From Pseudomonas phage TIETA, in the sequence record PV800129.1: DNA of 64,000 nucleotides, one strand, 5' to 3'. The notes beneath the pieces are model-generated. The model saw only the letters and a program-made list of their open reading frames with translations, was not told the DNA's origin and did no database searches. Position numbers and translations under genes: made by a program. Of this stretch, positions 48,729-62,649 are shown in pieces (position 1 is the stretch's first letter; every line of letters begins with the position of its first letter).

Positions 48729-48756
48729 TGCGGCATCCAACAAAGGAGGGAAGAAA

Positions 48757-49743
48757 ATGCAATTCAATATATCGAAGCAACTATGGGTAGCTAAAAGCGA
48801 GCGGAAGGGCGACTATAAAGGGACGCTTTTGGCATACATGTCTCAAGTGGACTTCAATAAAGATGGTAGCTTGGCTGCCAGCTTCAAGAAAAAGCAGCAG
48901 ACTGGTATGAGCTGGGCAGGTAAGAATGCCGAGACTTGCTTCATAGACAACATCCCTATCTCGGGGCATTTCATCGGGGACAGTGTTGAACGCTGGGTCA
49001 CTGAGAACAAATACTTCCGTGTGACAGACCCACGGGGTTTCGTTCTGGAGGTTCCTACCGGGAATATCTCGACCTTGCTCTACAACTGCACAGTAATCAA
49101 AGGTGTGATCCAAGAGCCTTGCGTGTGGGTACGGATGGGTTCTCAGCACGTTCTACTGCCGGAAGGTTCCTCTCTCTACAAAGAGGCTGTAAGCTTCGTG
49201 GAGCGAAAAGAGTCGGCCAAAACTGTTAAAGATATGGTGGCAGGGGATCGATGCACTCTTCTTAGCTACGGGACAGAGGAGAAACTAGAGGCTATCTACC
49301 TCGGACAGGTGAAGATCACTTGGCACCTCCTAGCTAAAAAGGGCCGGTACTCTAGCCGAGGGTGGGGTGGGGGTCGGTGGGGTTACCACCATCTAGAGAG
49401 GGAACTAGATAGAAAAGAATTCACTGAGAAAGATTCGAAGTGGGTTAGTGTGTTCGCTAAGCCGGTAGGAAAGCGGTGGAGTATCCATTTTATCCTGTCT
49501 CCAAAGGCAACCGACATTCAATCTGGAAGCGTCCCGGATGAACTTCAGAATCTCGACCTAGTGAATGGTGTAAAATGGGAGTACAACGAGAAAGACGACC
49601 GCCCGTCTTCCTATTACTCTGTACCGGATAGGGTAGTTAAGTGTATCAGTGTAGATGATCCCCTATGGGATAATCTGCACAGCTCCTCGGAGGTGCGGTG
49701 GACCCGCGAATGGACCGTGGTCGGAGCAGAGTGGCGAAAATAA
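48757..49743 (+). CDS. hypothetical protein (328 aa)
   Basis: RBS AAGGAGGG; monocistronic between its own promoter and terminator; Trp/Gly-rich segment GWGGGRWGYHH. Confidence 0.5.
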   Translation: MQFNISKQLWVAKSERKGDYKGTLLAYMSQVDFNKDGSLAASFKKKQQTGMSWAGKNAETCFIDNIPISGHFIGDSVERWVTENKYFRVTDPRGFVLEVPTGNISTLLYNCTVIKGVIQEPCVWVRMGSQHVLLPEGSSLYKEAVSFVERKESAKTVKDMVAGDRCTLLSYGTEEKLEAIYLGQVKITWHLLAKKGRYSSRGWGGGRWGYHHLERELDRKEFTEKDSKWVSVFAKPVGKRWSIHFILSPKATDIQSGSVPDELQNLDLVNGVKWEYNEKDDRPSSYYSVPDRVVKCISVDDPLWDNLHSSSEVRWTREWTVVGAEWRK

Positions 49744-49763
49744 GCCACCATTATTTTAGAATT

Positions 49764-49787
49764 GCCCGGCGAGAGCCGGGCTTTTTC
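49764..49787 (+). terminator. rho-independent terminator
   Basis: GCCCGGC-GAGA-GCCGGGC + TTTTT. Confidence 0.7.
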
Positions 49788-49965
49788 ATGGCAGGGGTTA
49801 TTTTCAAATTATTTTTAGATTTCTGGGAGTTTCGGCCAATATGGGCAATATGAAATTTCTCAGGAAAAGGCTCAGAATGCTCGTATAAGAGCCGTTCGAG
49901 TGTGGGCAGGGTGAGCTACTACTTAGCCGTAGAAGGACAGTGTGACGCTTAATAGGAGGGTTAGA

Positions 49966-50139
49966 ATGAAGATTGACAACGGTGGCGAATATGCGTATTG
50001 GCTGGCGGATATCAAAGAGTTTGTTTCTCAGATGGATGCCACAGAGATCGAGAAGAGGGCTTGTATAGCATACTTAATTAGCTGGTATCAGCGAAGAGTA
50101 CTGCACAGAATTAAACGGGAGGAATACGAGGCGATCTAA
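49966..50139 (+). CDS. small protein
   Basis: 57 aa; RBS TAGGAGGG. Confidence 0.35.
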   Translation: MKIDNGGEYAYWLADIKEFVSQMDATEIEKRACIAYLISWYQRRVLHRIKREEYEAI

Positions 50140-50144
50140 GCTAG

Positions 50145-50300
50145 GGACCGGATGGATTTTTAGGGACTGGACAGATTTTCACAGACTGCAAAATTGAGAA
50201 CTGGGCAGATTTTTAGGAACTGGACAGTTTTTCACAGAAGGGGATTTTTCTACAGAGGAATTTCCCCTGAAATTTAGCCGGATTTCTCAGAAGGGCGGAT
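50145..50300 (+). repeat. iteron-like array of imperfect direct repeats (GGRACTGGACAGATTTTTMRCAGA)
   Basis: at least 5 degenerate copies (gggaccggatggattttta / gggactggacagattttcacaga / aactgggcagattttta / ggaactggacagtttttcacaga / ggggatttttctacaga) in an intergenic region. Confidence 0.55.
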
Positions 50301-50356
50301 CGTTAGCAGGCTATCTAATTGGTTAGCAAGCTACCTTTAATCGTTAGCACACTAAC
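50300..50356 (+). repeat. three spaced GTTAGCA-NN-GCTA/CTAAC inverted-repeat units
   Basis: cgttagcaggctatc / ggttagcaagctacc / cgttagcacactaac at about 20-bp spacing; same TAGC..GCTA core as the IRs at 62.6-63.9 kb. Confidence 0.5.
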
Positions 50357-50703
50357 TAAAAATTCCTAGGACGGACCTCAGTTGGCACGAACGTTGCAAG
50401 CCCGCACCAGTTTCCCGGGCAGGCGTAGGCCTCGACTATCCGTCGTGAAGGCTATATGTAGTTGGGGACTCGCACCCCGCGTTTAAGATGCGCCCATTCT
50501 ACTATGACAAATCACTTTGTCAACATTCTTTTTATGGCACAAGGATTGCAATTGCAATTAGCGTGCCAGCTTAAATCTCAGGCTCCCTCCGTGTTTGTCT
50601 CCGGTGCTCGGCCTCCAGCCTGCGTTGCCCGCCTGCCTGTCATTATACACAAGCTAGCAAGACAAGCAAGAAAAATTATAGAGAAAAATCTACATAAAAC
50701 CGG

Positions 50704-50732
50704 TTGACAGGCCTCCTTTATATATGCACAAT
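50704..50732 (+). promoter_or_regulatory. sigma70-type promoter (first of the early-type array)
   Basis: TTGACA-17-CACAAT. Confidence 0.5.
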
Positions 50733-50767
50733 GATCCCACATTCAACGGAACGGCAGGTAAGCAGCC

Positions 50768-51241
50768 ATGCTACATAGTGAAGCCCGCGCGATGGCCCTA
50801 CAAGAGATGGACAAGTGGAGCCTCCTCGAACAAGGTTGGAAATTCAGTTTCAATCGCAGGATGAAACGGACGCTGGGACGTTGTAATCATGCTAAGAAGC
50901 TCATAGAGCTAGGTCATGACTATGTAGCCGATAATGGGCTTCCCGCAGTACTGGACACCATTCGTCACGAAATAGCACATGCTAAGGCAGGTCCGCACCA
51001 TGGGCATGATTCTGTATGGAAAGAGTGGTGCGGATTGATTGGCGCTAAACCTAATCAGTACGCCAGTACAAAGGACAAAGTAGTCGACTTTCCTTGGCGG
51101 CTGGCGATCCGGCACGCGGATGGCACGTTAGAGCCGCTGAATCACTTCGGTTTCAGACGCACCAACATGGCGAGAAAACAGGTACGCGGGCGGCCTGAGA
51201 CGCCGGGCAGGCTAGTTTGGGTGAAGAACGAAAATAATTGA
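50768..51241 (+). CDS. SprT-like zinc metalloprotease domain protein
   Basis: 157 aa; HEIAHA (HExxH) plus a downstream His-rich stretch (PHHGHD). Confidence 0.55.
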   Translation: MLHSEARAMALQEMDKWSLLEQGWKFSFNRRMKRTLGRCNHAKKLIELGHDYVADNGLPAVLDTIRHEIAHAKAGPHHGHDSVWKEWCGLIGAKPNQYASTKDKVVDFPWRLAIRHADGTLEPLNHFGFRRTNMARKQVRGRPETPGRLVWVKNENN

Positions 51242-51251
51242 GAAAAAGATG

Positions 51252-51279
51252 TTGACACCTTAGGCCATTCCTGTAGAAT
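51252..51279 (+). promoter_or_regulatory. consensus promoter cassette with palindromic operator (GGCCATTC-CTGTA-GAATGGCC)
   Basis: TTGACA-16-TAGAAT followed by conserved leader CTCAAGCAAAGGGAAACACC. Confidence 0.6.
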
Positions 51280-51330
51280 GGCCCTCAAGCAAAGGGAAAC
51301 ACCCGGAGCAGTCACAAAGGATACATAGTT

Positions 51331-51597
51331 ATGAAAGCGCTTTGTAATCATCGGGCACTCTACGCGGCTTACAATCGCAGCGAGATTGATCGCGTTGCGG
51401 TAGACTTGAACCGTTATTTTCCTATCGAGAAAGATGACGAATGGGAAGACGGGCCGTACATGTATCGTCGCCGCACCTATCTGGTGAAGCACTCGAAGGG
51501 CATAGCTCGGTGGCATAGTCTCTATTGCAATGGGACTGTCCAAGGCGTCGGAGTCATCTTCGACGTAAAGTCGGGCGAACCTTTCCGTACAGCATAA
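51331..51597 (+). CDS. hypothetical protein
   Basis: 88 aa. Confidence 0.45.
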   Translation: MKALCNHRALYAAYNRSEIDRVAVDLNRYFPIEKDDEWEDGPYMYRRRTYLVKHSKGIARWHSLYCNGTVQGVGVIFDVKSGEPFRTA

Positions 51598-51611
51598 AGG
51601 AGATTCAGAAA

Positions 51612-51755
51612 ATGCAAGCTTGGGATGTGTATCAGAACGGCCAATTGATCGATACTGTTTTCTTCGATATCATGTGTGATGCCGAAGAGGTGCGGAAATC
51701 GCTGGTCAATCATGACGGGTATCCGTCTGATATCACTGTGGAGGAGGTGGAGTAA
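51612..51755 (+). CDS. small protein
   Basis: 47 aa; RBS AAGGAG. Confidence 0.3.
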   Translation: MQAWDVYQNGQLIDTVFFDIMCDAEEVRKSLVNHDGYPSDITVEEVE

Positions 51756-52054
51756 TGGATAACCTGTCCGTTAAAATCGTTCTGTCGGAACTCAGCTACA
51801 AAGCTTTGACTCAAGCCTTCGCATTGCTTGGCCGGGTGCTCGATCTGGATGAGGGGTTAGATGATATACTTAACCTCATCGCGGATGAAATTGCTTTCCG
51901 CGACGGCCTGCCGCCTTTCGAAGACGGATGTGATAAAACAGAATGGATGCTCCGGCGATGGGAATCGCTCCCGGTGGTATCGTATATCGCCGGGCAAGAC
52001 GGGCCGGCTGTCGCTCGATCTATCGAAGTAAAGCCCGCATGGTGGGCAAACTGA
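51755..52054 (+). CDS. hypothetical protein
   Basis: 99 aa, coupled. Confidence 0.4.
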   Translation: MDNLSVKIVLSELSYKALTQAFALLGRVLDLDEGLDDILNLIADEIAFRDGLPPFEDGCDKTEWMLRRWESLPVVSYIAGQDGPAVARSIEVKPAWWAN

Positions 52055-52287
52055 TGACTATTAGAGTAGGGGATATCGTAGCCATCCGGGGCGACCTTCG
52101 GAAAAAGCTCGACGGATCGTGCCAGTATCTACCTGAACAACTAGTGGACGGTAAATTCCTCAAGCATACCGGAACGGGAGAAATGTGGACTGGCAGAGTA
52201 GAACGGATACGAGGCGACGTAGCCGAGGTAGGCGGCGGCTGGCGCGGCATTGAATATTATGTTCCCGTTAGTGAAATAAAAGCTTGA
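52054..52287 (+). CDS. hypothetical protein
   Basis: 77 aa from ATG 52054 (ATGA overlap). Confidence 0.4.
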   Translation: MTIRVGDIVAIRGDLRKKLDGSCQYLPEQLVDGKFLKHTGTGEMWTGRVERIRGDVAEVGGGWRGIEYYVPVSEIKA

Positions 52288-52312
52288 CAACCTGATTCCA
52301 TAGCTGCACAAT
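52284..52312 (+). promoter_or_regulatory. sigma70-type promoter
   Basis: TTGACA-17-CACAAT. Confidence 0.45.
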
Positions 52313-52357
52313 ACGACTCACAGACAACGCAAACGCCGAAAGGCGAGGAGAAAGCAG

Positions 52358-52486
52358 ATGAAAATGTTCTTCAAAACCCGCACTCAAGCCCGCGCCATGG
52401 CAATCAACGGTCGCAAAGTGGTAGACAACGGGGCTCAAGCTGAAAAGCGCTGGGCTGTCAAGCTGAACAAAAAGGAGGCGAAGTAA
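52358..52486 (+). CDS. small basic protein
   Basis: 42 aa; RBS GAGGAG. Confidence 0.3.
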   Translation: MKMFFKTRTQARAMAINGRKVVDNGAQAEKRWAVKLNKKEAK

Positions 52487-52794
52487 TGGCTAAGTCTGTT
52501 AGTGTAGATCGCAAGCGTTCCATCCTCGACGAGGCGAAAGACGGTAGCTTTTTCAGTGTGGAATTCGTCAAGGCAGACGGCACCGTTCGAAAGATGACGT
52601 GCAAGCGTCAGATTAAATCGGCGTATGCTAACGGACAGTATGCCACTCGCAAACCGACCAGCGCCGGCAAGCCGCACCTGTATACCGCCGCTGAGGTGCT
52701 GAACATGGAAGAGGGTAAATCCGCTTTCCGTACGATCAATCTCGAAACCCTTATCCGTGCGAAAGTGAACGGAATCGAATATAAATTCGATTAA
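52486..52794 (+). CDS. hypothetical protein
   Basis: 102 aa, TAATG-coupled. Confidence 0.45.
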   Translation: MAKSVSVDRKRSILDEAKDGSFFSVEFVKADGTVRKMTCKRQIKSAYANGQYATRKPTSAGKPHLYTAAEVLNMEEGKSAFRTINLETLIRAKVNGIEYKFD

Positions 52795-52798
52795 AAGC

Positions 52799-52826
52799 TT
52801 GACACCTTGGGCCATTCGCGTAGAAT
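52799..52826 (+). promoter_or_regulatory. consensus promoter cassette with perfect palindrome GGGCCATTC-GCGTA-GAATGGCCC
   Basis: TTGACA-16-TAGAAT + leader CTCAAGCAAGACAAAC. Confidence 0.6.
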
Positions 52827-52864
52827 GGCCCTCAAGCAAGACAAACAACCTAAGAGGCGGCAAC

Positions 52865-53077
52865 ATGAAACAAGGTACTGATTTGATCGCTAAAGTAAAT
52901 TTCACCGCCCGGCTCCCGGGAGCTAAGCGGGGGATTTCGGTCAAGCCGGGAGATAAATTCTGGGTCACTACTCCATCCTACAGTAACGCCGATTTCGTAG
53001 GCGTAGCGAGGAAAGGCAAAACAACCTCCTATCTTTTTACTGCTAAGGATGTACAAACTCTCTTCGAAACGGTATAA
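52865..53077 (+). CDS. hypothetical protein
   Basis: 70 aa. Confidence 0.4.
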   Translation: MKQGTDLIAKVNFTARLPGAKRGISVKPGDKFWVTTPSYSNADFVGVARKGKTTSYLFTAKDVQTLFETV

Positions 53078-53123
53078 TCTTCAGACCCAATTAACCAACG
53101 TTTGACAACATAGGAGATTTAAA

Positions 53124-53270
53124 ATGGCACGTTCTATCAAGGCTTCCGACTTCGATTCCGCTTACCAGTTCGAGGCCGCCAAACGTTCCGAACGTAAAGA
53201 GTCCCGCAAATCGCGTGACAATCGCAAAGCGAGCCGAGGCCGAGCTTTCGACTTCCGCGACGATATCTAA
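53124..53270 (+). CDS. small basic Arg/Lys/Ser-rich protein
   Basis: 48 aa; RBS TAGGAG. Confidence 0.3.
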   Translation: MARSIKASDFDSAYQFEAAKRSERKESRKSRDNRKASRGRAFDFRDDI

Positions 53271-53506
53271 GATTTGCGCCTAGCCGGTGGGCCGATACGC
53301 CGGCAATCCTAAGCTTATTCAGAGAGTGAGTTTAGGATTCTCAACCCCAGCGGAGATACCAAAAATGGTTCGTCAATGCGTACCCTGTCCCGATGCTCGC
53401 CATGCTTTTTGCCTTGCATGGTTGTTCGCCATGCCGGAGTTCGCCGGTCTGCCTGCTCAAAAGGACATAAAACTCTTTAAGACTTCGGGACAGTGGGCGG
53501 TATGTT

Positions 53507-53890
53507 ATGGCTAGACGACAGAGGCTCCCGTCATGGGTGCAGGATCAGACCGAGGATGATACTCCGCTCCGGGATAAGATAGACCCCTACCTTAGCAAGC
53601 TTGGCGAAGTCGATAAGCTAGAGGGACAATTGCGACGGGTCAGGGATGCAACGGACCCGGACGAATACAACGAAATGGCTAAGGTACTAAAAGCCCGACG
53701 CCGGAAGATAATGAAGCAACGTGCCCGGGCCTACGGTCTGCCAGAGGATGAGCCTACCAATGTCCAAGGGTACAGCGTACCGGAAGAGGTTCACCGTAGA
53801 GCCATCCTGTTAAGCAGTGTAAAACCTTGGATGTTCTGGACCATCCTGTCTTTCTCGATTTTTGTGTGGTTTGTTTTGAAAAACAGTTGA
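53507..53890 (+). CDS. C-terminally membrane-anchored protein
   Basis: 127 aa; charged helical N-terminus; C-terminal TM WMFWTILSFSIFVWFVL. Confidence 0.45.
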   Translation: MARRQRLPSWVQDQTEDDTPLRDKIDPYLSKLGEVDKLEGQLRRVRDATDPDEYNEMAKVLKARRRKIMKQRARAYGLPEDEPTNVQGYSVPEEVHRRAILLSSVKPWMFWTILSFSIFVWFVLKNS

Positions 53891-53914
53891 CAAGGTTCCC
53901 GCCTCCTGTAGAAT
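53887..53914 (+). promoter_or_regulatory. promoter cassette variant
   Basis: TTGACA-16-TAGAAT + leader GGTCAGCAAGAAAGG. Confidence 0.55.
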
Positions 53915-53965
53915 GGTCAGCAAGAAAGGCGGACAGGCCGCCTAGCTAGACAAAGGACAATCGTC

Positions 53966-54637
53966 ATGAACTTCACTCTCAACCTCGTTTCCAAAAACAG
54001 CAAAACCGGTCCCATGCCTGTTAGCACGTCTCATAACGGCACCTGCCCGGACGCCTGCCCTCTCAAGGCTAAGGGCTGCTATGCTGCGTATGGGCCTACT
54101 GCTATTCACTGGAAAAAGCTAAGCAATGGTGAACGTGGCGTAGAGTGGAAAGAGTTCCTTCAGCAGGTGCGGTCTATCTCCCGTGGCGACTTGTGGCGTC
54201 ACAATCAAGCTGGTGATCTAGTAGGTCAGGATGACGTTATCGACGGCGTTGCGCTAATGGATTTGGTGAAAGCCAACAAAGGACGTCGCGGCTTCACCTA
54301 CACACATTACCCGATGAACAATTTCATGAACCGCCAGCACGTATTGTCGGCCAATCGTAGCGGCTTCACTATCAACCTGTCGGGCAACAATGTAGCGCAC
54401 GCCGATGAACTGGCCGACCTGAACATCGCCCCTGTAGTGACTATTCTCCCGATGGACGCGGAGAATGTAAGCTTCACGCCGAAAGGGCGTAAAGTGGTAG
54501 CTTGTCCGGCTGAGAAAAGCGACAAGGTGACTTGTAAGTCGTGCGGCTTGTGCCAAGTGGCCGACCGGGAGTATATTATCGGCTTCCGTGCCCACGGCAC
54601 AGCAAAGAAAACTGTCGATCTCATTGCTAAGGGTTAA
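53966..54637 (+). CDS. Cys-rich protein, possibly Gp37/Gp68 (DUF5131)-like
   Basis: 223 aa; N-terminal GTCPDACPLKAKGCYA and C-terminal CKSCGLCQ clusters; pattern recalled as resembling the phage Gp37Gp68 family, not verified. Confidence 0.4.
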   Translation: MNFTLNLVSKNSKTGPMPVSTSHNGTCPDACPLKAKGCYAAYGPTAIHWKKLSNGERGVEWKEFLQQVRSISRGDLWRHNQAGDLVGQDDVIDGVALMDLVKANKGRRGFTYTHYPMNNFMNRQHVLSANRSGFTINLSGNNVAHADELADLNIAPVVTILPMDAENVSFTPKGRKVVACPAEKSDKVTCKSCGLCQVADREYIIGFRAHGTAKKTVDLIAKG

Positions 54638-54641
54638 CACA

Positions 54642-54980
54642 ATGGACGAATCTGTTTACGCACCGTTCAACCAATGCAAGATGATGGGCCTAGAACGCAC
54701 TGTAAGGAGCCTAGCGGCTCCTAACGGGTGCAAGGTAGTCTTGTATCAGGATCATAAGAACAAGCATAGAATAGTCATATATGACGCCCTAGGGCATGGA
54801 ATGTCTGGGGTCATGGTGCAAGCGGATGGGGAAATTCACTACAAGGAAACCCGCAAGGCTAGCCAAGGGCAAAACCTGACAAGGCAACTACAAGCCCAAC
54901 TGACTGCATGGGGAGTGAAGTGGTTTCCCTCTCAGTATCAGACAACGGCAGGCGCAGCTTGCTACAAAGGAGACCGGTAA
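54642..54980 (+). CDS. hypothetical protein
   Basis: 112 aa. Confidence 0.4.
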   Translation: MDESVYAPFNQCKMMGLERTVRSLAAPNGCKVVLYQDHKNKHRIVIYDALGHGMSGVMVQADGEIHYKETRKASQGQNLTRQLQAQLTAWGVKWFPSQYQTTAGAACYKGDR

Positions 54981-55333
54981 TGCGACAGCTTAACAAAACT
55001 CAATTCAAAGCATTAGGCGCTAAGATCGACCTAGCCTTAGAGCTAGCCGCTACTGGTCGAGGTGAACTAATGAATGGCTACGGCTCTACCTGCTACATTT
55101 CAAACAAGGCTGGCCATAATATCCTTCGAGTGAGCTACCATAACTCCCGATTCGTTGTGTACGGTAACGAGAGCGTCCGGGTTACCGGGACCGCCTTGCA
55201 GGCTTGGATGGAGTGGAAAGGCATTAATCTGGCAGCCATCGCGTCTGTTAGTGAGTACGGGTATCATCCTAACCTGAGCATAGGGCACAACGATGCTCTT
55301 AAGACTCTGCGTGATATCGAGCGTTACCAGTGA
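54980..55333 (+). CDS. hypothetical protein
   Basis: 117 aa, coupled. Confidence 0.4.
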   Translation: MRQLNKTQFKALGAKIDLALELAATGRGELMNGYGSTCYISNKAGHNILRVSYHNSRFVVYGNESVRVTGTALQAWMEWKGINLAAIASVSEYGYHPNLSIGHNDALKTLRDIERYQ

Positions 55334-55524
55334 CGGCCTCTTACTCGACAGAGAAACGGGGCCAGAGGTGGGCCATCATCCGTACTGAGCCCGGTTACAG
55401 AGGTGACCGGGTGACCGTGCTAGGATTCTGTATCAATCAAACGCACGCTCTTAAAACGGTAGCCAAATTCCGGGCTTGGCAAGCGCTAGGCTGGCCCTAC
55501 ACACTGAAAGACGACAGAAAATAA
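55330..55524 (+). CDS. hypothetical protein (GTG start)
   Basis: 64 aa. Confidence 0.35.
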   Translation: MTASYSTEKRGQRWAIIRTEPGYRGDRVTVLGFCINQTHALKTVAKFRAWQALGWPYTLKDDRK

Positions 55525-55527
55525 TGC

Positions 55528-55555
55528 TTGACAGCCTAGGCCATTCGCGTAGAAT
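55528..55555 (+). promoter_or_regulatory. consensus promoter cassette with palindromic operator
   Basis: TTGACA-16-TAGAAT; AGGCCATTCGCGTAGAATGGCCAT + leader CAAGCAAGACAAACCGCC. Confidence 0.6.
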
Positions 55556-55596
55556 GGCCATCAAGCAAGACAAACCGCCCATTAGGAGACTCAAAA

Positions 55597-55791
55597 ATGA
55601 AAGCTGTAGCTCAGTTCAAAAGTGAAGACTACGCAAGCGGTGATAGCCGTACTGCTACTGTCTATGAGGATGTTTATGGCTGTTACATCGTGAGCGTTTT
55701 CGGAACTAGCCTGAGCGAGCCTGTCAGCTACCATTGGGGTCCGTTCGAGTATAAAGAATCTGCAATCGATGCCGCTAAGTCTGCCATCTAA
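55597..55791 (+). CDS. hypothetical protein
   Basis: 64 aa; RBS TAGGAGA. Confidence 0.4.
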   Translation: MKAVAQFKSEDYASGDSRTATVYEDVYGCYIVSVFGTSLSEPVSYHWGPFEYKESAIDAAKSAI

Positions 55792-55806
55792 TCTGGAGAT
55801 TACAGA

Positions 55807-56324
<518 letters not shown>

Positions 56325-56356
56325 GGTATAGTCTCAATCAAAACAGGAACGAACCG

Positions 56357-56623
56357 ATGTCGATTCTAGCTCTAACTCTGACCCTCTGCTCCGCTGTCCA
56401 ATGCGACGACTACATTATCGATCACTCTCTGCCGGGACAAGCCGCAGAGTGTAATGCTCGGCTAGTGGAAGAGGCCGAAGAGTTCGGCGATGCTTGGGTG
56501 GCGACTAACGCTGATGCCCGTCTGACCCGCTACCTTAGCCGATTCAATATTCAGGTTGACCCGCGCTTTGTTTTCGATTACGATTTCACCTGTCAACTGA
56601 TCGCAGAGGATGAATTGCCATGA
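56357..56623 (+). CDS. hypothetical protein
   Basis: 88 aa. Confidence 0.4.
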   Translation: MSILALTLTLCSAVQCDDYIIDHSLPGQAAECNARLVEEAEEFGDAWVATNADARLTRYLSRFNIQVDPRFVFDYDFTCQLIAEDELP

Positions 56624-57012
56624 TCGCTCCACCTATCACCAATAAACAGTCGCAGCGCCGAGCCGCCATCATCATTCGCCGAGTGAAATACTACGAAAGC
56701 CGCTGGCTGCGCACGGTGACTTTCTTCGTAGGAGAGTGCAGCGAGAACATAACCGAACGTTTCGCCTATCTGCGGCACGCAGAAGAGCAAATGTCCAAGC
56801 TGAAAGCTGAGTTTGCAGCTTTTCCGGTAGAGCATCGGTTGAAGGCTCTCGGTTGGATCAACTGGAATACCTACAATGACGGCCTGTTAGAAGAGTGGAT
56901 TCACCCGGATAGTGACCGAGCCATCATGCTAGAGTACGATAGCACGACGTGGCGGCCAGAGGCTTGCTGGGAGACCAAGGTGGATACGCTCTCTAAGCTA
57001 GCTATGCTGTAA
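56620..57012 (+). CDS. hypothetical protein
   Basis: 130 aa, ATGA-coupled. Confidence 0.4.
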   Translation: MIAPPITNKQSQRRAAIIIRRVKYYESRWLRTVTFFVGECSENITERFAYLRHAEEQMSKLKAEFAAFPVEHRLKALGWINWNTYNDGLLEEWIHPDSDRAIMLEYDSTTWRPEACWETKVDTLSKLAML

Positions 57013-57041
57013 AAATAATGCCCGTTAGGCTGAAATAATGC

Positions 57042-57069
57042 TTGACGGGCATTTTTGTATCTGTAGAAT
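57042..57069 (+). promoter_or_regulatory. promoter cassette variant
   Basis: TTGACG-16-TAGAAT + leader GGCCTCAAGAAAGGAG. Confidence 0.5.
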
Positions 57070-57122
57070 AGGCCTCAAGAAAGGAGAACAGCCGAAAGGC
57101 TGAATCTGAAACAAAGAAACGC

Positions 57123-57150
57123 TTGACAGCTTAACATGGAAGCGTAGAAT
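57123..57150 (+). promoter_or_regulatory. promoter cassette variant (tandem with 57042)
   Basis: TTGACA-16-TAGAAT. Confidence 0.5.
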
Positions 57151-57187
57151 GTCAGCCAGAGGGAGCACAAATCTCCCCTAAGAGGAT

Positions 57188-57439
57188 ATGAGAATGCGCA
57201 TCATCGACCGCACCGAAGGAAACGAAAGCCCGAGTCACTGCTACATTGTCACTGGTAGCATCGGACCGGAGTTCGAGCCCCTTCTATTCGCTACTCATAC
57301 ATTGGCAAAGAAATATGCCCAGCATATAGTGAAATACGGCGAGGCTAACGTTGTTTTCCCGCCTTTCGTGCCTGTTATCGAGACTCGCCACAAGGCAGAT
57401 ATGAATCGCTTCACGATCCACAACAAAATCCCGGAATAG
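57188..57439 (+). CDS. hypothetical protein
   Basis: 83 aa; RBS AGAGGA. Confidence 0.4.
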   Translation: MRMRIIDRTEGNESPSHCYIVTGSIGPEFEPLLFATHTLAKKYAQHIVKYGEANVVFPPFVPVIETRHKADMNRFTIHNKIPE

Positions 57440-57450
57440 GAGATAAATCG

Positions 57451-57765
57451 TTGAAACTCTCTCAAATTTTCCAAGAAGGACTCGACTACGCTATCTTTCA
57501 CGGGACGCCGTGGTATATGTGTGTGCGTCTCCGGGAGCTAGACTTGCCAATTAATCTCGACGACGTGACCCGGGACATTCGATCTATCATGAATGAAGCC
57601 GGAATAACGTCGGAGGGAGTGGACGACTACTTCTGGGAAACTGGCATGGCTGATGACTACGTGATGACAGTACAAGAGGTCAGAGATTACGGGAGCCCCG
57701 CCTATTCAATGTGGGTGCAATTTTGGTTCTTCGTAATCTTTGACTTAGCCCGAAAAGGGCAGTAG
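57451..57765 (+). CDS. hypothetical protein (TTG start)
   Basis: 104 aa; RBS AGGAGA before TTG. Confidence 0.35.
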   Translation: MKLSQIFQEGLDYAIFHGTPWYMCVRLRELDLPINLDDVTRDIRSIMNEAGITSEGVDDYFWETGMADDYVMTVQEVRDYGSPAYSMWVQFWFFVIFDLARKGQ

Positions 57766-57799
57766 AATAGACGGCAGATAATGTGATCTAAGGACGATC

Positions 57800-58279
57800 A
57801 TGAAAGACAAGACTGTAGTTTATCGAATCGAGTGCAAGAACGGCGAGGGCCCTTATGTTAATGGGTGCATGACGAATTCGTCTTCCACTCCAGAACGGCC
57901 TGTCCCTGAGCATGACGGGATACCGGATGTTCGCGATTTTGAGTTCTTCGCCTTCACGTCCCCTAGGCAGCTAGACGATTGGTTTGGCGACGAATACGAT
58001 GTACTATCTTTCTATTCTACCGCACGGATCAGGGTCTATGAGGTGGACAAGCAACATGTAAGGGTCGGCATCCGGCAATGTGTATTCCGCAAGGCGGAAG
58101 CTGATTGCGTCCAAGAGGTGAGCATAGACCAATGGGTTAGCATGGTACGCGCCGGACTATTGTCCGCCTCGGTCACACAAACTGTAGCTCCACGTCCTAC
58201 CGAGCAATTGTCCCTAGACCTAGGGGATGACTCGGCCTGCGAAGCTTCGAAAGAAATTTTGAAAATCTTCGGTTTGTAG
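57800..58279 (+). CDS. hypothetical protein
   Basis: 159 aa; RBS AAGGA. Confidence 0.45.
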   Translation: MKDKTVVYRIECKNGEGPYVNGCMTNSSSTPERPVPEHDGIPDVRDFEFFAFTSPRQLDDWFGDEYDVLSFYSTARIRVYEVDKQHVRVGIRQCVFRKAEADCVQEVSIDQWVSMVRAGLLSASVTQTVAPRPTEQLSLDLGDDSACEASKEILKIFGL

Positions 58280-58281
58280 GG

Positions 58282-58309
58282 TTGACAGCTTGGGCCATTC
58301 GCGTAGAAT
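58282..58309 (+). promoter_or_regulatory. consensus promoter cassette (canonical copy)
   Basis: GTTGACAGCTTGGGCCATTCGCGTAGAATGGCCCTCAAGCAAGACAAACCGCC. Confidence 0.65.
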
Positions 58310-58362
58310 GGCCCTCAAGCAAGACAAACCGCCGATAGGCAAAACCTAAGGAACTATAAGCC

Positions 58363-58878
58363 ATGACTACCGAAAACCTTTCCTCTAAAGAAATCGAAAC
58401 CGCCGTTGACGAATTCCTGAAGTCAATCGATGTTACCGTGGCCACCGTGTGTCGAGGTGAGCGCAATAGTGAAGGTTGGGTGCATGACCTGTGGGATGTA
58501 AGTTTCATCCGTGGCGATGGCCTCCGTGGAGTTCTCGACACTGAATTCCGCACAGGCGTCGGGCATCGCAAAGCCTCGATTCCCATGCCCGCCGACATCC
58601 GCCGTCTGGCCCCTAACATCCTGATGCGGGTAGAGTGGGAAAAACGTTACATCAAGGCTGTAGCACCTGAGGCTACCTGTATCCTGTCCAGCCTTATCCG
58701 GGACTCTGAAGCGGGCGGATACACTTTCGAGGAGTTCTGTGGAGAATTCGGCTACGATACTGATAGCCGAAAGGCCTTCGACACTTACATGGCTTGTCAG
58801 AATATTCTGAACAAGGTGCGGAATTTCTTCACTCAGGAAGAAATTAAACACATAGCGCGTCTGGTGGATCGATACTGA
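58363..58878 (+). CDS. hypothetical protein
   Basis: 171 aa. Confidence 0.5.
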   Translation: MTTENLSSKEIETAVDEFLKSIDVTVATVCRGERNSEGWVHDLWDVSFIRGDGLRGVLDTEFRTGVGHRKASIPMPADIRRLAPNILMRVEWEKRYIKAVAPEATCILSSLIRDSEAGGYTFEEFCGEFGYDTDSRKAFDTYMACQNILNKVRNFFTQEEIKHIARLVDRY

Positions 58879-58885
58879 AAAAAGG

Positions 58886-58913
58886 TTGACAGCTTGGGCC
58901 ATTCGCGTAGAAT
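58886..58913 (+). promoter_or_regulatory. consensus promoter cassette (near-identical copy)
   Basis: GTTGACAGCTTGGGCCATTCGCGTAGAATGGCTCTCAAGCAAGACAAACCAC. Confidence 0.65.
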
Positions 58914-58953
58914 GGCTCTCAAGCAAGACAAACCACAAACCCGGAGACTCCCC

Positions 58954-59481
58954 ATGAACAAGCCAATGAACACTTTCGCATACGCCCACTACGTCGCCCG
59001 CATGGACAAGGCCTCTGGCACTAGCCTGCCCTACGCCACCCTGTTCCGCATCGCCCTGCGTAACGCCTACCGCAAGCCGGGTGTCCGCCAGTACGATTGT
59101 GCAGCACTCGTCGAGGATATCAAAGCGCGTGAACTGGTCCAAAAGCGCATTCGGGCTGAAAAAGCAGTAGTGATGGCGGCAGTAATGCGTGCAATCCGTA
59201 CTGGCTTCACTGTTAGCGTGAAGGATGGCAGCGACGGTGAATGGGTGGTGAAGAAATCTACCGATATCAAGGAAATCTCTGACAGCCTGCAATCGACCGA
59301 TGAAGATATCATCCGCTTCCGCAAGGGTGACGGCCCGGACAACATCGTCGGCTCTATGTGGGCAATCTACGGTAACAGCGCTGGCGAAGTGATCGCCGAC
59401 TGGACCGAAAACGCCACCATGGCCATGATTATGGCTCCGGCTGAGCGGAAGATGGAAAAATACGCGGAATTGGGTATCTAA
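58954..59481 (+). CDS. hypothetical protein
   Basis: 175 aa from ATG 58954; the ORF track start at 58894 lies within the promoter. Confidence 0.45.
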   Translation: MNKPMNTFAYAHYVARMDKASGTSLPYATLFRIALRNAYRKPGVRQYDCAALVEDIKARELVQKRIRAEKAVVMAAVMRAIRTGFTVSVKDGSDGEWVVKKSTDIKEISDSLQSTDEDIIRFRKGDGPDNIVGSMWAIYGNSAGEVIADWTENATMAMIMAPAERKMEKYAELGI

Positions 59482-59484
59482 TGC

Positions 59485-59513
59485 TTGACGGGGCCCGAAA
59501 AGGGCCCCATAAT
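59485..59513 (+). promoter_or_regulatory. promoter with a GGGCCC-GAAAA-GGGCCC hairpin in the spacer
   Basis: TTGACG-17-CATAAT. Confidence 0.45.
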
Positions 59514-59551
59514 GCACCCATACCAACCAAGCAATCCTAGAGGGCAACACC

Positions 59552-59785
59552 ATGGCTACACTGATTATCGGCAACGTAAACTACCATAACCATCGTCTAG
59601 TCGATGAAATCGCTGGCGATGCTGGCTACAAGGGTGCCGCCCGCTTGGTGGACGAATGCACTCGCAAAATCACCTTGCTAGCGCCTTCTGGAATTCCTGC
59701 CATCGACGCCAAGGAGCGTGCTGAAGTCGCCGCAATGATTGGTGAGTATATTCTAGCAGGATTCGAAGTTTCGATTCAGCACTAA
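59552..59785 (+). CDS. hypothetical protein
   Basis: 77 aa. Confidence 0.4.
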   Translation: MATLIIGNVNYHNHRLVDEIAGDAGYKGAARLVDECTRKITLLAPSGIPAIDAKERAEVAAMIGEYILAGFEVSIQH

Positions 59786-59809
59786 CACCTTAAACCCGGA
59801 GTACCGACA

Positions 59810-59974
59810 ATGAAACGCCAATATACTGATTCCTACTATTGCAAAGCGATTGACGGCATGATTTCTGTCCTCGGCGGTAAGAAAATTCAAGTACCGCCGT
59901 CCTTGAAAGCCTCTCGAAACCGCCTGCTGAAAAAGATGGTAAAATACGTCAGCCGGTCAGGATGGAAACCGTAA
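59810..59974 (+). CDS. small basic protein (paralog of 60055..60198)
   Basis: 54 aa; C-terminal NRLLKKMVKYVSRSGW vs IRRLMKLARYLSRAVHG. Confidence 0.3.
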   Translation: MKRQYTDSYYCKAIDGMISVLGGKKIQVPPSLKASRNRLLKKMVKYVSRSGWKP

Positions 59975-59987
59975 CCGACAGACTGGC

Positions 59988-60017
59988 ATAGCCCCGGAAT
60001 GCCCGGGGCTATGTTTG
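59988..60017 (+). terminator. rho-independent terminator
   Basis: ATAGCCCCGG-AATGC-CCGGGGCTAT + GTTTG. Confidence 0.55.
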
Positions 60018-60054
60018 CTCGAACTGACAGCCTATCATCACAGAGGATTAATCT

Positions 60055-60198
60055 ATGCGCACCAACTACCTAGACAACCTGAATTCGGCAATCAAAGGTG
60101 AATGCATCCGCCACCAGCAAGGCCGCAAACCTTCGAAACTGGCAATCCGTCGCCTGATGAAGCTGGCTCGCTACCTCAGCCGGGCAGTTCACGGCTAA
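60055..60198 (+). CDS. small basic protein (paralog of 59810..59974)
   Basis: 47 aa; RBS AGAGGA. Confidence 0.3.
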   Translation: MRTNYLDNLNSAIKGECIRHQQGRKPSKLAIRRLMKLARYLSRAVHG

Positions 60199-60262
60199 TA
60201 ACTCGACAACCTCACCCCGGCTTGCTGGGGCCCTGAATAACGATCCCTATAGGAGATAAAAG

Positions 60263-60724
60263 ATGAATATCCTGTTTATCCATAAAGACTCGGTCTACAC
60301 TGTCAAAACCATCCGTGAATTCCTTCAGGCGGCAGTAGATAGCATCCGTGCGGCTGGACTCAATATGTGCGGATATGACGGCGACGGTTTGGGCCCTAAC
60401 GCTCCAGACTACCGAATAGCTATCGTCACCCCTGAAGAGTTCTACCGCACTTTCTATATTCAGGTGGAACTGGCTACACTCTATCAGAATAATCCCCGGC
60501 TTGTGTTTACAGACGCTGACAGCCCGGCTTACAAGATGCGAGCCGAGACGGCCATGAAATGCGGAGAGTGGAGTTACATGACCGTTTGGCAGCATATCCG
60601 TCTGAAAGATATGGCTGCTATGGCAAGCTTGGAAGTGTGGGCAGTAGCTCTAGCCGACTCCGCACGACAGGTTGATATCGATCCCCGACCTAACGCTGGT
60701 AAACTCGGTCAGACGATTCACTAA
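60263..60724 (+). CDS. hypothetical protein
   Basis: 153 aa; RBS TAGGAGA. Confidence 0.45.
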   Translation: MNILFIHKDSVYTVKTIREFLQAAVDSIRAAGLNMCGYDGDGLGPNAPDYRIAIVTPEEFYRTFYIQVELATLYQNNPRLVFTDADSPAYKMRAETAMKCGEWSYMTVWQHIRLKDMAAMASLEVWAVALADSARQVDIDPRPNAGKLGQTIH

Positions 60725-60740
60725 AAGGAGGTAGCATCAA

Positions 60741-61043
60741 ATGAAGAGCGAGTATGCAAATAACACGTATGCAAAGAGCATCGCCACGGAATACAACCTC
60801 CTCTGTCGCGTTCGCGGGATCACTTTAGTAAGCGCCCGTCGCCACCCTGATAGCCGAGTCGTGAAGGTGGCAGCGCTCTACGCCTGTGCGGCCTATGGCC
60901 GTCCTTACAAGGACTGTATTGGTGCCTACAAGGCTGCTAAGCGGCGGGAAAAGGATATGCGAGACCCCGCCAAATGGAAGCTTCAGCGGGAAGCCAAACG
61001 AGCTGTGCAGTGGCTAAAAGCTACCATGAACAAACGCAAATAA
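60741..61043 (+). CDS. hypothetical basic protein
   Basis: 100 aa; RBS AAGGAGG. Confidence 0.4.
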   Translation: MKSEYANNTYAKSIATEYNLLCRVRGITLVSARRHPDSRVVKVAALYACAAYGRPYKDCIGAYKAAKRREKDMRDPAKWKLQREAKRAVQWLKATMNKRK

Positions 61044-61057
61044 GGCAGAAATACCTG

Positions 61058-61086
61058 TTGACGTGAGACTAAAGGGTTCCTATACT
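61058..61086 (+). promoter_or_regulatory. sigma70-type promoter with a 5-prime leader hairpin
   Basis: TTGACG-17-TATACT; GAGACGC-ACAAG-GCGTCTC at 61096-61114 would sit at the transcript 5-prime end. Confidence 0.5.
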
Positions 61087-61136
61087 GTGCCTATCGAGAC
61101 GCACAAGGCGTCTCCTAAGCTAGAAGGACTAGCAAA

Positions 61137-61403
61137 ATGGCAAAGGCAAATCTGAAGTTCTCCCGCATTGGCAATGACGGCTATGACTACGCCCGCAGGG
61201 AAGACGGGGTTTGGTTTGTCAGGGAAGGGTACTACGGGCGGTACGGCTGGGCTAAAACCAAATGGGCTGAAGTCCAAGCCGGAGACGGCATGACTATAGT
61301 CGATGCCTGCCTGAAGGCTCACGAAGCTGGAAGCTCCAGCACATACATCGGATTCGGGAATCTGGTGGTATTCTCCGACGGGAAGGGGCTCCGTTTACCC
61401 TAA
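61137..61403 (+). CDS. hypothetical protein
   Basis: 88 aa. Confidence 0.4.
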   Translation: MAKANLKFSRIGNDGYDYARREDGVWFVREGYYGRYGWAKTKWAEVQAGDGMTIVDACLKAHEAGSSSTYIGFGNLVVFSDGKGLRLP

Positions 61404-61424
61404 ACAGGAACTCAAATAAAGTTG

Positions 61425-61452
61425 TTGACAGCTTAGGCCATTCCTGTAGAAT
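61425..61452 (+). promoter_or_regulatory. consensus promoter cassette with palindromic operator
   Basis: TTGACA-16-TAGAAT; AGGCCATTCCTGTAGAATGGCCAT + leader CAAGCAAAGGGAATCACC. Confidence 0.6.
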
Positions 61453-61502
61453 GGCCATCAAGCAAAGGGAATCACCCTGAGCAACTGAATAGGTAAAAGA
61501 CG

Positions 61503-61697
61503 ATGCAAGCAACCTACCAAGCCCTGAAAACTCTGCGCGATGCTTGTGAAGCTGTCAAGGATGAAAAAGGCACCATCAACGGAAACAAATTGAATGCACT
61601 GCGTAACAAGGCTGTCAAGGAAATGCAAGCTGGTGGTGAAACCTACTCTGACGCCATTAGCATGGCTCACGACTTGATTAAGAAGTATCGCAAGTAG
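61503..61697 (+). CDS. hypothetical protein
   Basis: 64 aa. Confidence 0.4.
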   Translation: MQATYQALKTLRDACEAVKDEKGTINGNKLNALRNKAVKEMQAGGETYSDAISMAHDLIKKYRK

Positions 61698-61746
61698 TCA
61701 ATCCGTAACAAGCCCCGGGTGACCGGGGCCTCTCATAGGAAAGACC

Positions 61747-61881
61747 ATGAAAAACGTTCAAATCTGTTGTTCGAAGTGTGGAGCCATCAACGGCGGTAAC
61801 AGCAGGCACAATTGGGTTATCGCATTAGGCAAGAAGTGGTGCGGTCATTGTGGGTCCAATCTCACAACCCTTCGTCGCTAA
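61747..61881 (+). CDS. small zinc-ribbon protein
   Basis: 44 aa with CCSKCG...CGHCG. Confidence 0.3.
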   Translation: MKNVQICCSKCGAINGGNSRHNWVIALGKKWCGHCGSNLTTLRR

Positions 61882-61912
61882 CCATTCACTGAGACCTAAT
61901 CGAGGAGAGATC

Positions 61913-62074
61913 ATGAACGCCACTCTGGCACGCCTACAGAACGAACGCTGTGCAACCCTCCGCCTGATGCTCCTGCCGGAACATCGTGGGTATCAGTTCT
62001 CTGGCCATCCTTGGGCCGAGCGAATCCGCAATCTCCACGATGAAGCTCGGTGCATCCGCAGCCATCACAGCTAA
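61913..62074 (+). CDS. small protein
   Basis: 53 aa from ATG 61913 after RBS GAGGAGAG. Confidence 0.3.
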   Translation: MNATLARLQNERCATLRLMLLPEHRGYQFSGHPWAERIRNLHDEARCIRSHHS

Positions 62075-62084
62075 CCCCATTCCC

Positions 62085-62110
62085 AGCCCGGCACAGCCGG
62101 GCTTTCTCTC
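62085..62110 (+). terminator. rho-independent terminator
   Basis: AGCCCGGC-ACAG-CCGGGCT + TTCTCTC. Confidence 0.55.
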
Positions 62111-62128
62111 ATAGGAGGCAAGTGAACA

Positions 62129-62389
62129 ATGGTTAACTATCTGATCCTCTTTTTCGTCATAGCAATGGTCTATTGCGTGATAGGCGCTTTAGTCTCTGGA
62201 ATGCTACTAATGCTAAAAGAGGCTAGCTCTGAATTTGAATGGCCTACCCGCAAAGAGAAAGATGTTATCTACGTCCTAGGTGCAATATGGCCTATCTCGT
62301 TACCATTTCTCGCAGTAGGCATTGTCCTAGGCATACCGGCGATGGGAATCGCAAAGGCAGTGAAACGCCTAATCAAAAACAACTACTAA
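62129..62389 (+). CDS. small membrane protein (2 TM)
   Basis: 86 aa hydrophobic; RBS TAGGAGG. Confidence 0.45.
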   Translation: MVNYLILFFVIAMVYCVIGALVSGMLLMLKEASSEFEWPTRKEKDVIYVLGAIWPISLPFLAVGIVLGIPAMGIAKAVKRLIKNNY

Positions 62390-62416
62390 GCCCACTAAAA
62401 CCAACAAAGCTCTAAC

Positions 62417-62440
62417 AGCCCGCCTTGTGCGGGCTTTGTT
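62417..62440 (+). terminator. rho-independent terminator
   Basis: AGCCCGC-CTTGT-GCGGGCT + TTGTTC; a second GAAAGC-GGGG-CTTTC hairpin follows. Confidence 0.55.
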
Positions 62441-62533
62441 CTATCTGCGAAAGCGGGGCTTTCAAGTGTAATTAACATGTAATGTTGTAACACCCTGTAG
62501 AGGGTAACACCAGCATGACAAGATAGACCACTT

Positions 62534-62549
62534 GTAACGTTAACGTTAC
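62534..62549. repeat. perfect 16-bp palindrome GTAACGTTAACGTTAC
   Basis: self-complementary; flanked by GTAACACC direct repeats and AGCATGACA(A/G) repeats (62512, 62563, 62991). Confidence 0.7.
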
Positions 62550-62649
62550 ATGTATAACAGCATGACAGCGGAAGCTGTATGTTCACATTCTGTATAGATA
62601 ACCCTATCAAATAACCCCACAATAACCTACCTAAAACCTACCGGTTTAA

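Follow-up and report, generated by a model that had tools for sequence, protein, structure and literature searches.

Pakpunaviruses, the PAK_P1-like phages of Pseudomonas aeruginosa, carry a repeated early promoter that has already been published. Henry et al. 2015 (PLoS One 10:e0117163; PMC4309531) described it as a 41-nt repeat within an 11-kb variable region, with 5-6 copies per genome, 32 of 41 positions strictly conserved, and a TTGACA...TAgAAT core; the authors remarked on the unusual conservation around the hexamers. Two copies were reported in KPP10-like phages, and no matches were found outside both P. aeruginosa phage clades (PMC4309531). The text of that study mentions no palindrome, hairpin, stem-loop, early promoter/stem-loop element (PeSL), or recombination at the repeats. 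Here, we analyzed a 64,000-nt stretch of Pseudomonas phage TIETA (PV800129.1; hereafter, the window), in which an array of early promoters runs from position 50700 to 61460. Six of these promoters, which we refer to as cassettes, are copies of the published repeat, the same element in the same phage genus. Because the repeat was already published, our finding adds no new kind of element; the inverted repeat, the stem-loop, and the recombination are the additions made here. The unusually conserved part of the published repeat is an inverted repeat in which the spacer is complementary to the −10 plus discriminator, and the −35 to the start site. We propose that this palindrome is probably the stem-loop of a composite promoter cassette that shuffles between genomes in the manner of PeSLs, rather than a repressor site.

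PeSLs were described in T4-type phages, where a strong sigma70-like early promoter with AT-rich upstream sequence carries a stem-loop "most commonly" between the −35 and −10 or over the −10 (Arbiol et al. 2010, PMC2839356; Comeau et al. 2014, PMC4122927). Such elements cluster ahead of ORFans in hyperplastic regions and mediate modular shuffling, and their promoter activity, terminator/attenuator activity, and mini-circles were demonstrated experimentally (PMC2839356; PMC4122927). The cassettes share every sequence-level feature of this description. They have a sigma70-consensus early promoter (11/12 match) behind an AT-rich upstream tract (69% A+T) and a stable stem-loop over the −10 (z-scores down to −4.2), they lie in a hyperplastic region ahead of ORFans, and indels and replacements between related phages end at them. 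There are also differences. The cassettes belong to another phage lineage and host (Pakpunavirus, not T4-type) and have no sequence homology to PeSLs. Their stem is nearly the same in all six copies, in contrast to the diverse stems of PeSLs, and no U-tract follows the hairpin. Finally, PeSL activities were shown by experiment, whereas the cassettes are known here from sequence alone. Since the phage lineages are unrelated, the cassettes would be analogues of PeSLs and not members by descent.

Two other familiar arrangements resemble the cassette in part. Dyad-symmetric repressor operators lie over the −10 in, for example, LexA boxes and the Cro-CI operators of lambda and P22, and the cassette dyad similarly covers the −10 and discriminator, where a bound dimer would exclude RNA polymerase. 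It differs from these operators in that no cognate protein was found among 38 open reading frames (ORFs), the site is absent from most of the co-located promoters, and the spacing of its arms is not kept in a distant relative, the metagenomic contig L156. Likewise, the cassette resembles an intrinsic terminator in having a G+C-rich hairpin a few nucleotides after the upstream stop codon, and one neighboring promoter, at 57042, overlaps a canonical hairpin with a T-run. The six cassettes differ from intrinsic terminators in lacking a U-tract on the sense strand.

A megablast search of window 50000-62000 against the phage collection matched 278 records, 277 of which are Pseudomonas phages. The closest relatives were Pa-U (99.9%) and vB_PaM_EPA1 (99.4%; hereafter, EPA1), followed by other Pakpunavirus genomes at 88-93%. 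As judged by these matches, the window comes from a P. aeruginosa Pakpunavirus, and the region studied is the mosaic "early" arm of the ~92-kb genomes of this genus; sequence comparison showed the variable region to be a mosaic among Pakpunavirus genomes.

The original prediction held that at least 10 near-identical promoter cassettes occur in this region, with four looser relatives. We searched the entire 64-kb window on both strands with a 49-nt consensus, allowing 14 substitutions, and detected cassettes at 51252, 52799, 55528, 58282, 58886, and 61425, all on the + strand, and no further copies. These six sites were placed into one family by a repeat finder. They also coincided in number with the matches to the pattern GGGCCATTC-N5-GAATGGCCC with up to three mismatches (6 sites versus 0.02 expected by chance) and to a pattern of the −35 plus left arm (6 sites versus 0.03 expected). 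The region thus contains six true cassettes within an array of 14 co-directional early promoters, and the original observation is confirmed only in part. Three of the sites it had counted as copies (53887, 57042, and 57123) lack the GGCCATTC/GAATGGCC palindrome and have different spacers. The four "looser relatives" (50704, 52284, 59485, and 61058) are indeed sigma70-like promoters, but they too lack this palindrome and differ in the spacer. Our counts agree with those of Henry et al. 2015, at six copies here and 4-7 in other Pakpunavirus genomes, and the GenBank record of EPA1 has 49-nt "promoter" features annotated at the cassette sites.

Each cassette core consists of TTGACA, a 16-nt spacer, and TAGAAT, as the original prediction had stated, and matches the sigma70 consensus at 11 of 12 positions in our promoter scan. 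The left arm, GGCCATTC, occupies the 3′ part of the spacer, and the right arm, GAATGGCC, comprises the last four bases of the −10 and the first four of the discriminator. Together, they form a dyad, GGCCATTC-N5-GAATGGCC, that covers spacer, −10, and discriminator from about −25 to −3 relative to the predicted start and therefore lies outside the transcript made from its own promoter. The arms had been predicted to be perfect over 9 bp in every copy. This is true of two copies only, at 52809 and 58292; the common core is 8 bp, and the ninth pair shows no covariation. In the 20 nt upstream of the −35, A+T averages 69% (44% A), compared with 49% regionally. The cassettes lie between genes, with 2-21 nt from the stop codon of the upstream ORF to the cassette start and 31-46 nt from the cassette end to the next ATG.

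Downstream of the dyad, the sequence falls into two leader subtypes, with four copies continuing as ...TCAAGCAAGACAAACC (type A) and two as ...TCAAGCAAAGGGAA... (type B). A shared transcript start of 20 nt, proposed for every copy, is accordingly present as CAAGCAAGACAAACC in four copies, while those at 51252 and 61425 share TCAAGCAA only, followed by AGGGAA.... Conservation that extends well past the −35/−10 hexamers, another part of the original prediction, is upheld and agrees with Henry et al. 2015. Cassette 1 (51252-51300, type B) has TTGACA as its −35, GGCCATTC-CTGTA-GAATGGCC at 51263-51283, and TAGAAT as its −10; the upstream gene stops 10 nt before its TTGACA, and the next ATG is at 51331. 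Cassette 2 (52799-52847, type A) has perfect 9-bp arms at 52809-52831, an upstream stop codon 4 nt before the −35, and an ATG at 52865. Cassette 3 (55528-55576, type A; palindrome 55538-55560) is followed by cassette 4 (58282-58330, type A), which equals the consensus and has perfect arms at 58292-58314. Cassette 5 (58886-58934, type A; palindrome 58896-58918) has the right arm GAATGGCT, in which a C-to-T change produces a G·U pair on the sense strand. Cassette 6 (61425-61473) is type B, with its palindrome at 61435-61457. A possible Hfq/Crc (A-R-N) site in the A/C-rich leader was considered and found to match only partially, by eye.

Folding revealed that the pairing extends beyond the dyad. 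In the cassettes, a stem of 8-9 bp overlaps the −10, and an outer stem forms between (GC)TTGA of the −35 and TCAA(GC), with which the "conserved leader" begins. The complementarity of TCAAGC to GCTTGA at the −35 thus explains part of the leader conservation. RNA folds of 84-nt windows around the cassettes, outer stem included, reached −25 to −34 kcal/mol, with z-scores of −3.9 and −4.2. The 12 nt 3′ of the hairpin contain a single T on the sense strand in all six copies. A canonical intrinsic terminator was therefore rejected for the six cassettes, as they have no sense-strand U-tract. Rfam and tRNA scans of 47-64 kb gave no match.

Stem-loops are not confined to the promoters that carry the cassette palindrome. 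Our scan detected 29 promoter-like sites versus 12.3 ± 3.7 expected, and 16 of the 17 best are on the + strand. The eight non-cassette promoters of the array, including one at 57740 that the original prediction overlooked, mostly follow TTGAC(A/G)-N16/17-(T/C)AnAAT, with spacers that differ from that of the cassette. The promoter at 57740-57768 (TTGACT-17-TAGAAT) has another hairpin, GCCC-GAAAA-GGGC, in its spacer, and the one at 59485-59513 (TTGACG-17-CATAAT) has an unrelated perfect palindrome, GGGGCCC-GAAAA-GGGCCCC, in the same position. KPP10 promoters have unrelated inverted repeats of their own: GAGGGCTC/GAGCCCTC around the −10, GGGGCCAG/CTGGCCCC, CCGGGGCT/AGCCCCGG around the −35, and a 13-bp stem, CTTGACGGGGGTC/GACCCCCGTCAAG, formed by the −35 and the start region. 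More variants of unrelated inverted repeats are found at the early promoters of EPA1 and PaYy-2. Across 28 distinct non-cassette promoters of this phage group, the mean folding z-score was −1.28 (t-test p = 0.001; Wilcoxon p = 0.0009), and seven of the 28 had z < −2, with unrelated stems around the −10 or −35 such as GGGGCCC/GGGCCCC. Promoter-embedded hairpins of unrelated sequence are thus common among Pakpunavirus and Nankokuvirus early promoters, which is a second addition to the published description.

The cassettes also coincide with a footprint of recombination. We compared window 47500-64000 with 11 related loci by blastn and counted clusters of homology breakpoints inside 50700-61500. 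Promoter zones make up 10.4% of this region but contain 15 of the 31 clusters (7 at cassettes, 8 at other promoters; binomial P ~1e-7, for clusters that are not fully independent); the cassettes alone contain 7 of 31 (P = 5e-4). The 3′ end of cassette 2, at 52846, is a homology breakpoint in 9 of the 11 related phages, and cassette 3 has a breakpoint at 55568-55585 in three. Flanks are shuffled around the cassettes, with one upstream flank found next to three downstream partners and one downstream segment next to five upstream partners. The gene module between cassettes 4 and 5 (58347-58884, + strand), which contains an ORF of 171 aa at 58363-58878, is present in the window, EPA1, and phiMK and absent in nine other Pakpunaviruses. 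Phage B55 is a clean recombinant in which the upstream flank of cassette 4 is joined exactly to the downstream flank of cassette 5. Homology also ends at cassette 5, whose last base is 58934, in Pa-U (58933) and in EPA1 (58934 by megablast or 58884 by local blastn).

Exchange appears to extend across genera. KPP10, a Nankokuvirus, has a cassette with a homologue of ORF 58363-58878 behind it (74% amino-acid identity). Its early modules are 80-85.5% identical to the window at the nucleotide level, in blocks that begin at cassette 4 (58282) and at 61409, just before cassette 6, where the homology is 85%. The replication genes, in contrast, are only 67-79% identical, over short stretches. This pattern suggests a fairly recent exchange of early modules between Pakpunavirus and Nankokuvirus. 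The early modules are the most similar DNA between the two genera (window 58282-59554 and 60764-62118 versus 20001-23337 of the KPP10 locus, L148).

A search of related phages for the same cassette, proposed in the original prediction, located it at 692 places in 156 records of the phage collection, all P. aeruginosa phages, with 4-7 copies per genome in Pakpunavirus and 1-2 in Nankokuvirus. Our comparison set consisted of the homologous region of 12 Pakpunaviruses and KPP10, plus IMG/VR loci. The 66 copies from 14 genomes comprise 27 distinct 41-nt cores, in which 24 positions are invariant and ten more vary in three or fewer copies. Free variation is limited to three places, namely the 4-5 nt immediately downstream of the −35, the first two bases of the loop, and the base that follows GGCC; the last of these would form the putative ninth pair, and it shows no covariation in the 66 copies. 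Changes in the arms are of two kinds only, an A to G in the left arm (GGCCGTTC, 6 copies) and the C to T in the right arm at window 58886. The same core variants occur at different slots, and one slot holds different variants in different phages.

The arms are 5 nt apart in every one of the 66 copies from Pakpunavirus and Nankokuvirus and 10 nt apart in the single distant relative, L156. This contig has a homologue of the small ORF at 51612-51755, and one of its five promoters is a cassette variant, TTGACG-GCCTATTC-AAATACTG-TAGAAT-GGGCC-TCAAGCAAGACAAAC. Its right arm is unchanged, its left arm lies 5 nt further upstream, the loop is lengthened from 5 to 10 nt, and one T·G pair is added. The variant folds into a 9-bp stem that is continuous with the GCTTGA/TCAAGC outer stem (−23 kcal/mol). 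In L156, then, pairing is preserved and half-site spacing is not. The ORF after this variant was considered as a homologue of the window ORF at 58363 and rejected; L156 is related only via another early gene. Counting L156, three arm variants are known, each with a G·U pair on the + strand that corresponds to A·C on the − strand. The pattern is suggestive of a function on the sense strand, most simply in read-through RNA.

Transcription data from relatives agree with an early role for the array. In PAK_P4, transcription of the ORFan-rich early region is seen at 3.5 min, and the phage needs the host RNA polymerase for infection (PMC5563952). In PAK_P3, sigma70-like promoters were found at 78.7% of 75 mapped transcription start sites, and several were active in reporters (PMC10914365). 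The original prediction of an array of strong, near-consensus sigma70 early promoters, each ahead of a few small ORFs, is in agreement with the PAK_P4 expression data, with Henry et al. 2015, and with the EPA1 annotation. Promoter activity of the cassettes in this phage is predicted from their sequence.

We suggest the following model. The cassettes would act as strong host sigma70 promoters, each combining TTGACA-16-TAGAAT with A-rich sequence upstream and a conserved start region, that drive short operons of host-takeover ORFans straight after infection. Host sigma70 RNA polymerase would start at each cassette early, as the sequence described here and the timing and polymerase dependence reported for PAK_P4 and PAK_P3 lead us to expect. 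Polymerases arriving from upstream promoters would transcribe the dyad right behind the upstream stop codon. Since the cassettes start 2-21 nt after that codon, the coding part of the read-through mRNA would end in a stable 8-9 bp hairpin with the outer GCTTGA/TCAAGC stem. By the precedent of PeSLs, its position, and the sense-strand wobble pairs, this hairpin may attenuate or punctuate read-through, mark a processing site, or protect the 3′ end of the upstream mRNA, while the same DNA would restart transcription for the next module. As the copies are nearly identical and in direct orientation, the cassettes could also serve as sites of homologous recombination; the footprint is observed, and such a mechanism would allow early modules to be inserted, deleted, and swapped, both inside Pakpunavirus and with Nankokuvirus. 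The anatomy of the cassettes, their hairpin potential, the unrelated hairpins at sister promoters, and the recombination footprint are direct observations, and a stem-loop function is what we propose by analogy only.

Several of our results weigh against this model. GGCC/GGCC is retained in 65 of the 66 copies with no compensatory double change, so that the arms are more conserved than a hairpin needs; this pattern fits sequence-specific recognition or homogenization by gene conversion, and gene conversion between copies could explain it equally well as an operator. The hairpin, with one T in the 12 nt that follow it, is not a canonical terminator, and a role as attenuator or stabilizer is proposed by analogy only. 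Half of the sister promoters have no significant hairpin. The enrichment of breakpoints, besides coming from clusters of incomplete independence, is partly expected since promoters lie in intergenic DNA, where indel ends occur anyway. Finally, the wobble argument for the sense strand is only suggestive, as it draws on three events.

The geometry of the dyad also fits an operator, and a dimeric phage or host repressor bound to GGCCATTC-N5-GAATGGCC might occlude RNA polymerase and shut the promoters off at the early-to-middle transition. We regard this repressor-operator mechanism as the less likely reading, and a rather unlikely one. It would account for the position of the dyad over the −10, for arms that hardly change across the 66 copies (14 genomes, two genera) beside spacer and loop positions that vary freely, and for a degree of arm conservation beyond what pairing alone requires; early genes are also down-regulated later in infection in PAK_P3 and PAK_P4 (PMC5563952). 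It does not account for the presence of the site at only six of 14 early promoters, the others having no palindrome or an unrelated one in the same geometry, nor for the 10-nt arm spacing with retained pairing in L156 or the occurrence of GGCCGTTC in one arm only in ~9% of copies. We also looked for a candidate binding protein among 38 early ORFs at 48.7-63.8 kb, 30 of which were compared with PHROGs and 30, including eight additional ones, with Pfam. No DNA-binding domain, helix-turn-helix included, was found in these 38 ORFs with either database. The 30 ORFs compared with PHROGs all fell into families of unknown function, apart from one without a PHROG match, and the Pfam scan returned only SprT-like and DUF families above the Pfam thresholds; the scans place the cassettes in a hyperplastic region ahead of ORFans. 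Small phage regulators are frequently missed by profile searches. The bare palindrome has at least 120 bacterial matches in unrelated taxa, approximately the chance level for 16 fixed bases in 596 Gb, and none among the matches listed, which do not allow P. aeruginosa itself to be judged, is in a promoter context. SrpA, a host regulator of the related phage K5 that binds the palindrome NTATC-N-GATAN, was rejected as the dyad binder because its site (GTATC...GATAT) differs from the dyad. These observations argue against the original proposal that one dimeric repressor coordinates the whole 11-kb region via the palindrome. A narrower version, in which the 23-bp dyad is the operator of a small phage or host protein that switches off six of the 14 early promoters, so that the cassette would be a promoter, operator, and recombination module and the repressor-operator pair would be common to two genera, is likewise unlikely.

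The palindrome might alternatively have no separate function, being a founder accident in one strong promoter that was copied and then kept uniform by gene conversion. The sharing of core variants between slots and the differences of slots between phages are a signature of exchange, copy number ranges from 1 to 7 per genome, and compensatory changes are lacking in the 66 copies, all as this explanation would have it. We nevertheless find it quite unlikely, as homogenization alone is insufficient to explain why the spacer beside the left arm and the first two loop bases vary and the arm does not, inverted repeats also occupy this position, independently, in unrelated promoters of the group, and the L156 variant rebuilt its pairing with a relocated arm. 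Kinetic tuning, in which the G+C-rich discriminator (GGCCCTC) and the start region CAAGCAAGACAAACC set open-complex stability, ppGpp or supercoiling sensitivity, and promoter escape while the left arm is incidental, is very unlikely. G+C-rich discriminators are tied to stringent control in E. coli, which speaks for such tuning, and the TCAAGCAAG...AAAC start region also occurs at palindrome-free promoters of KPP10 and of unrelated metagenomic phage contigs. An alarmone hydrolase and a MazG-like enzyme have in addition been reported for Pakpunaviruses (PMC12846349). Left unexplained are the conservation of the spacer segment GGCCATTC, where sequence is normally free, and its exact complementarity to the −10 and discriminator. 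Least probable of all, to the point of being hardly credible, is an antisense terminator, a minus-strand hairpin with a U-rich run that stops antisense transcription from entering the early genes. T-rich sequence does follow the minus-strand hairpin and outer stem at several cassettes, owing to the A-rich upstream tracts, and several leader hairpins score as minus-strand terminator-like sites. Cassette 4, though, has no minus-strand T-run, and the three arm variants, which pair as G·U on the plus strand, give A·C mismatches on the minus strand. The antisense RNAs reported for PAK_P3 and PAK_P4 map for the most part to structural genes and not to the early region (PMC5563952).

Under the favored reading of a shuffling promoter/stem-loop cassette, the cassettes would mark the joints at which early host-takeover and anti-defense modules are swapped, also between both genera, which is the third point added to the published description. 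If confirmed, this would extend the "mobile regulatory cassette" idea from T4-type phages to unrelated therapeutic Pseudomonas phages. It would also help to anticipate the sites of accessory-gene gain and loss in phage-therapy candidates and could provide compact, strong, self-insulating promoter parts for Pseudomonas engineering.

The remaining promoters of the array, all on the + strand, have varied surroundings. Two of them, at 50704-50732 and 52284-52312, are sigma70-like with TTGACA-17-CACAAT and no cassette palindrome, and the latter is a deletion junction in phage Adele. The promoter at 53887-53914 has the TTGACA-16-TAGAAT elements without the GGCCATTC palindrome, and a breakpoint lies right after it in two phages. 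At 57020-57069, we observed a composite terminator-promoter, in which a hairpin, GCCCGTTAGGC ... GCTTGACGGGC (57020-57050), followed by ATTTTTG, overlaps the −35 of the promoter at 57042 (TTGACG-16-TAGAAT). The terminator (57020-57057), a canonical hairpin with a T-run, contains this −35 in its right arm, and the EPA1 record has an annotated terminator at the site matching the 57020-57050 hairpin. A sigma70-like promoter at 57123-57150, 81 nt on, is in tandem with 57042, and a breakpoint between both, at 57112, recurs in seven phages. The palindrome-bearing promoter at 59485 is followed by a breakpoint at 59520-59525 in 10 of 11 phages. The last non-cassette promoter, at 61058-61086 (TTGACG-17-TATACT), is sigma70-like and lacks the cassette palindrome.

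Seven contigs from unrelated phages (metagenome and IMG/VR; L151, L155, L159, L160, L164, L168, and L169) have repeated promoters of their own, of the form TTGACA-N16-TAGAAT-AAYAA-TCAAGCAAGGCAAC(A/T)AACCAACCGGAGAG. These promoters have a start and leader, TCAAGCAAG...AAACC...CCGGAGA, in common with the Pakpunavirus cassettes, and the GGCCATTC palindrome is absent from them. The conserved start region, being shared by unrelated contigs that lack the palindrome, is apparently a module of wider distribution than the dyad.

Two further observations concern the vicinity of individual cassettes. Directly after cassette 2, in the region 52847-53112, lies an extra small ORF (52865-53077, 70 aa) without a PHROG or Pfam match; it is found in the window, EPA1, and phiMK and is missing from nine related phages. 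The Pa-U record starts at window 58933, one base before the end of cassette 5, and such record breaks at cassette 5 are consistent with assembly or recombination breaks at the repeat.

Just upstream of the array is a gene-poor stretch of ~900 bp (49760-50700), in which scans detected no tRNA or Rfam family match. It contains a strong terminator-like hairpin at 49764-49781, two pairs of direct repeats (50155-50185 with 50208-50238, and 50299-50318 with 50340-50359), and a minus-strand sigma70 promoter from 50523 to 50496 that matches the consensus at 11 of 12 positions; the minus-strand sequence downstream of this promoter has an unremarkable fold (z = −1.05). The stretch may represent a non-coding RNA or a locus with a replication or structural role. 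On the other side of the array, window ~62841-64000 can be aligned to the 1164-bp direct terminal repeat annotated for phage vB_PaeM_C2-10_Ab08 (14703-15866 of its locus, L023), and by this alignment, the promoter array abuts one physical end of the genome. Window 63170-63772 corresponds to an HNH-endonuclease-like ORF annotated in relatives.

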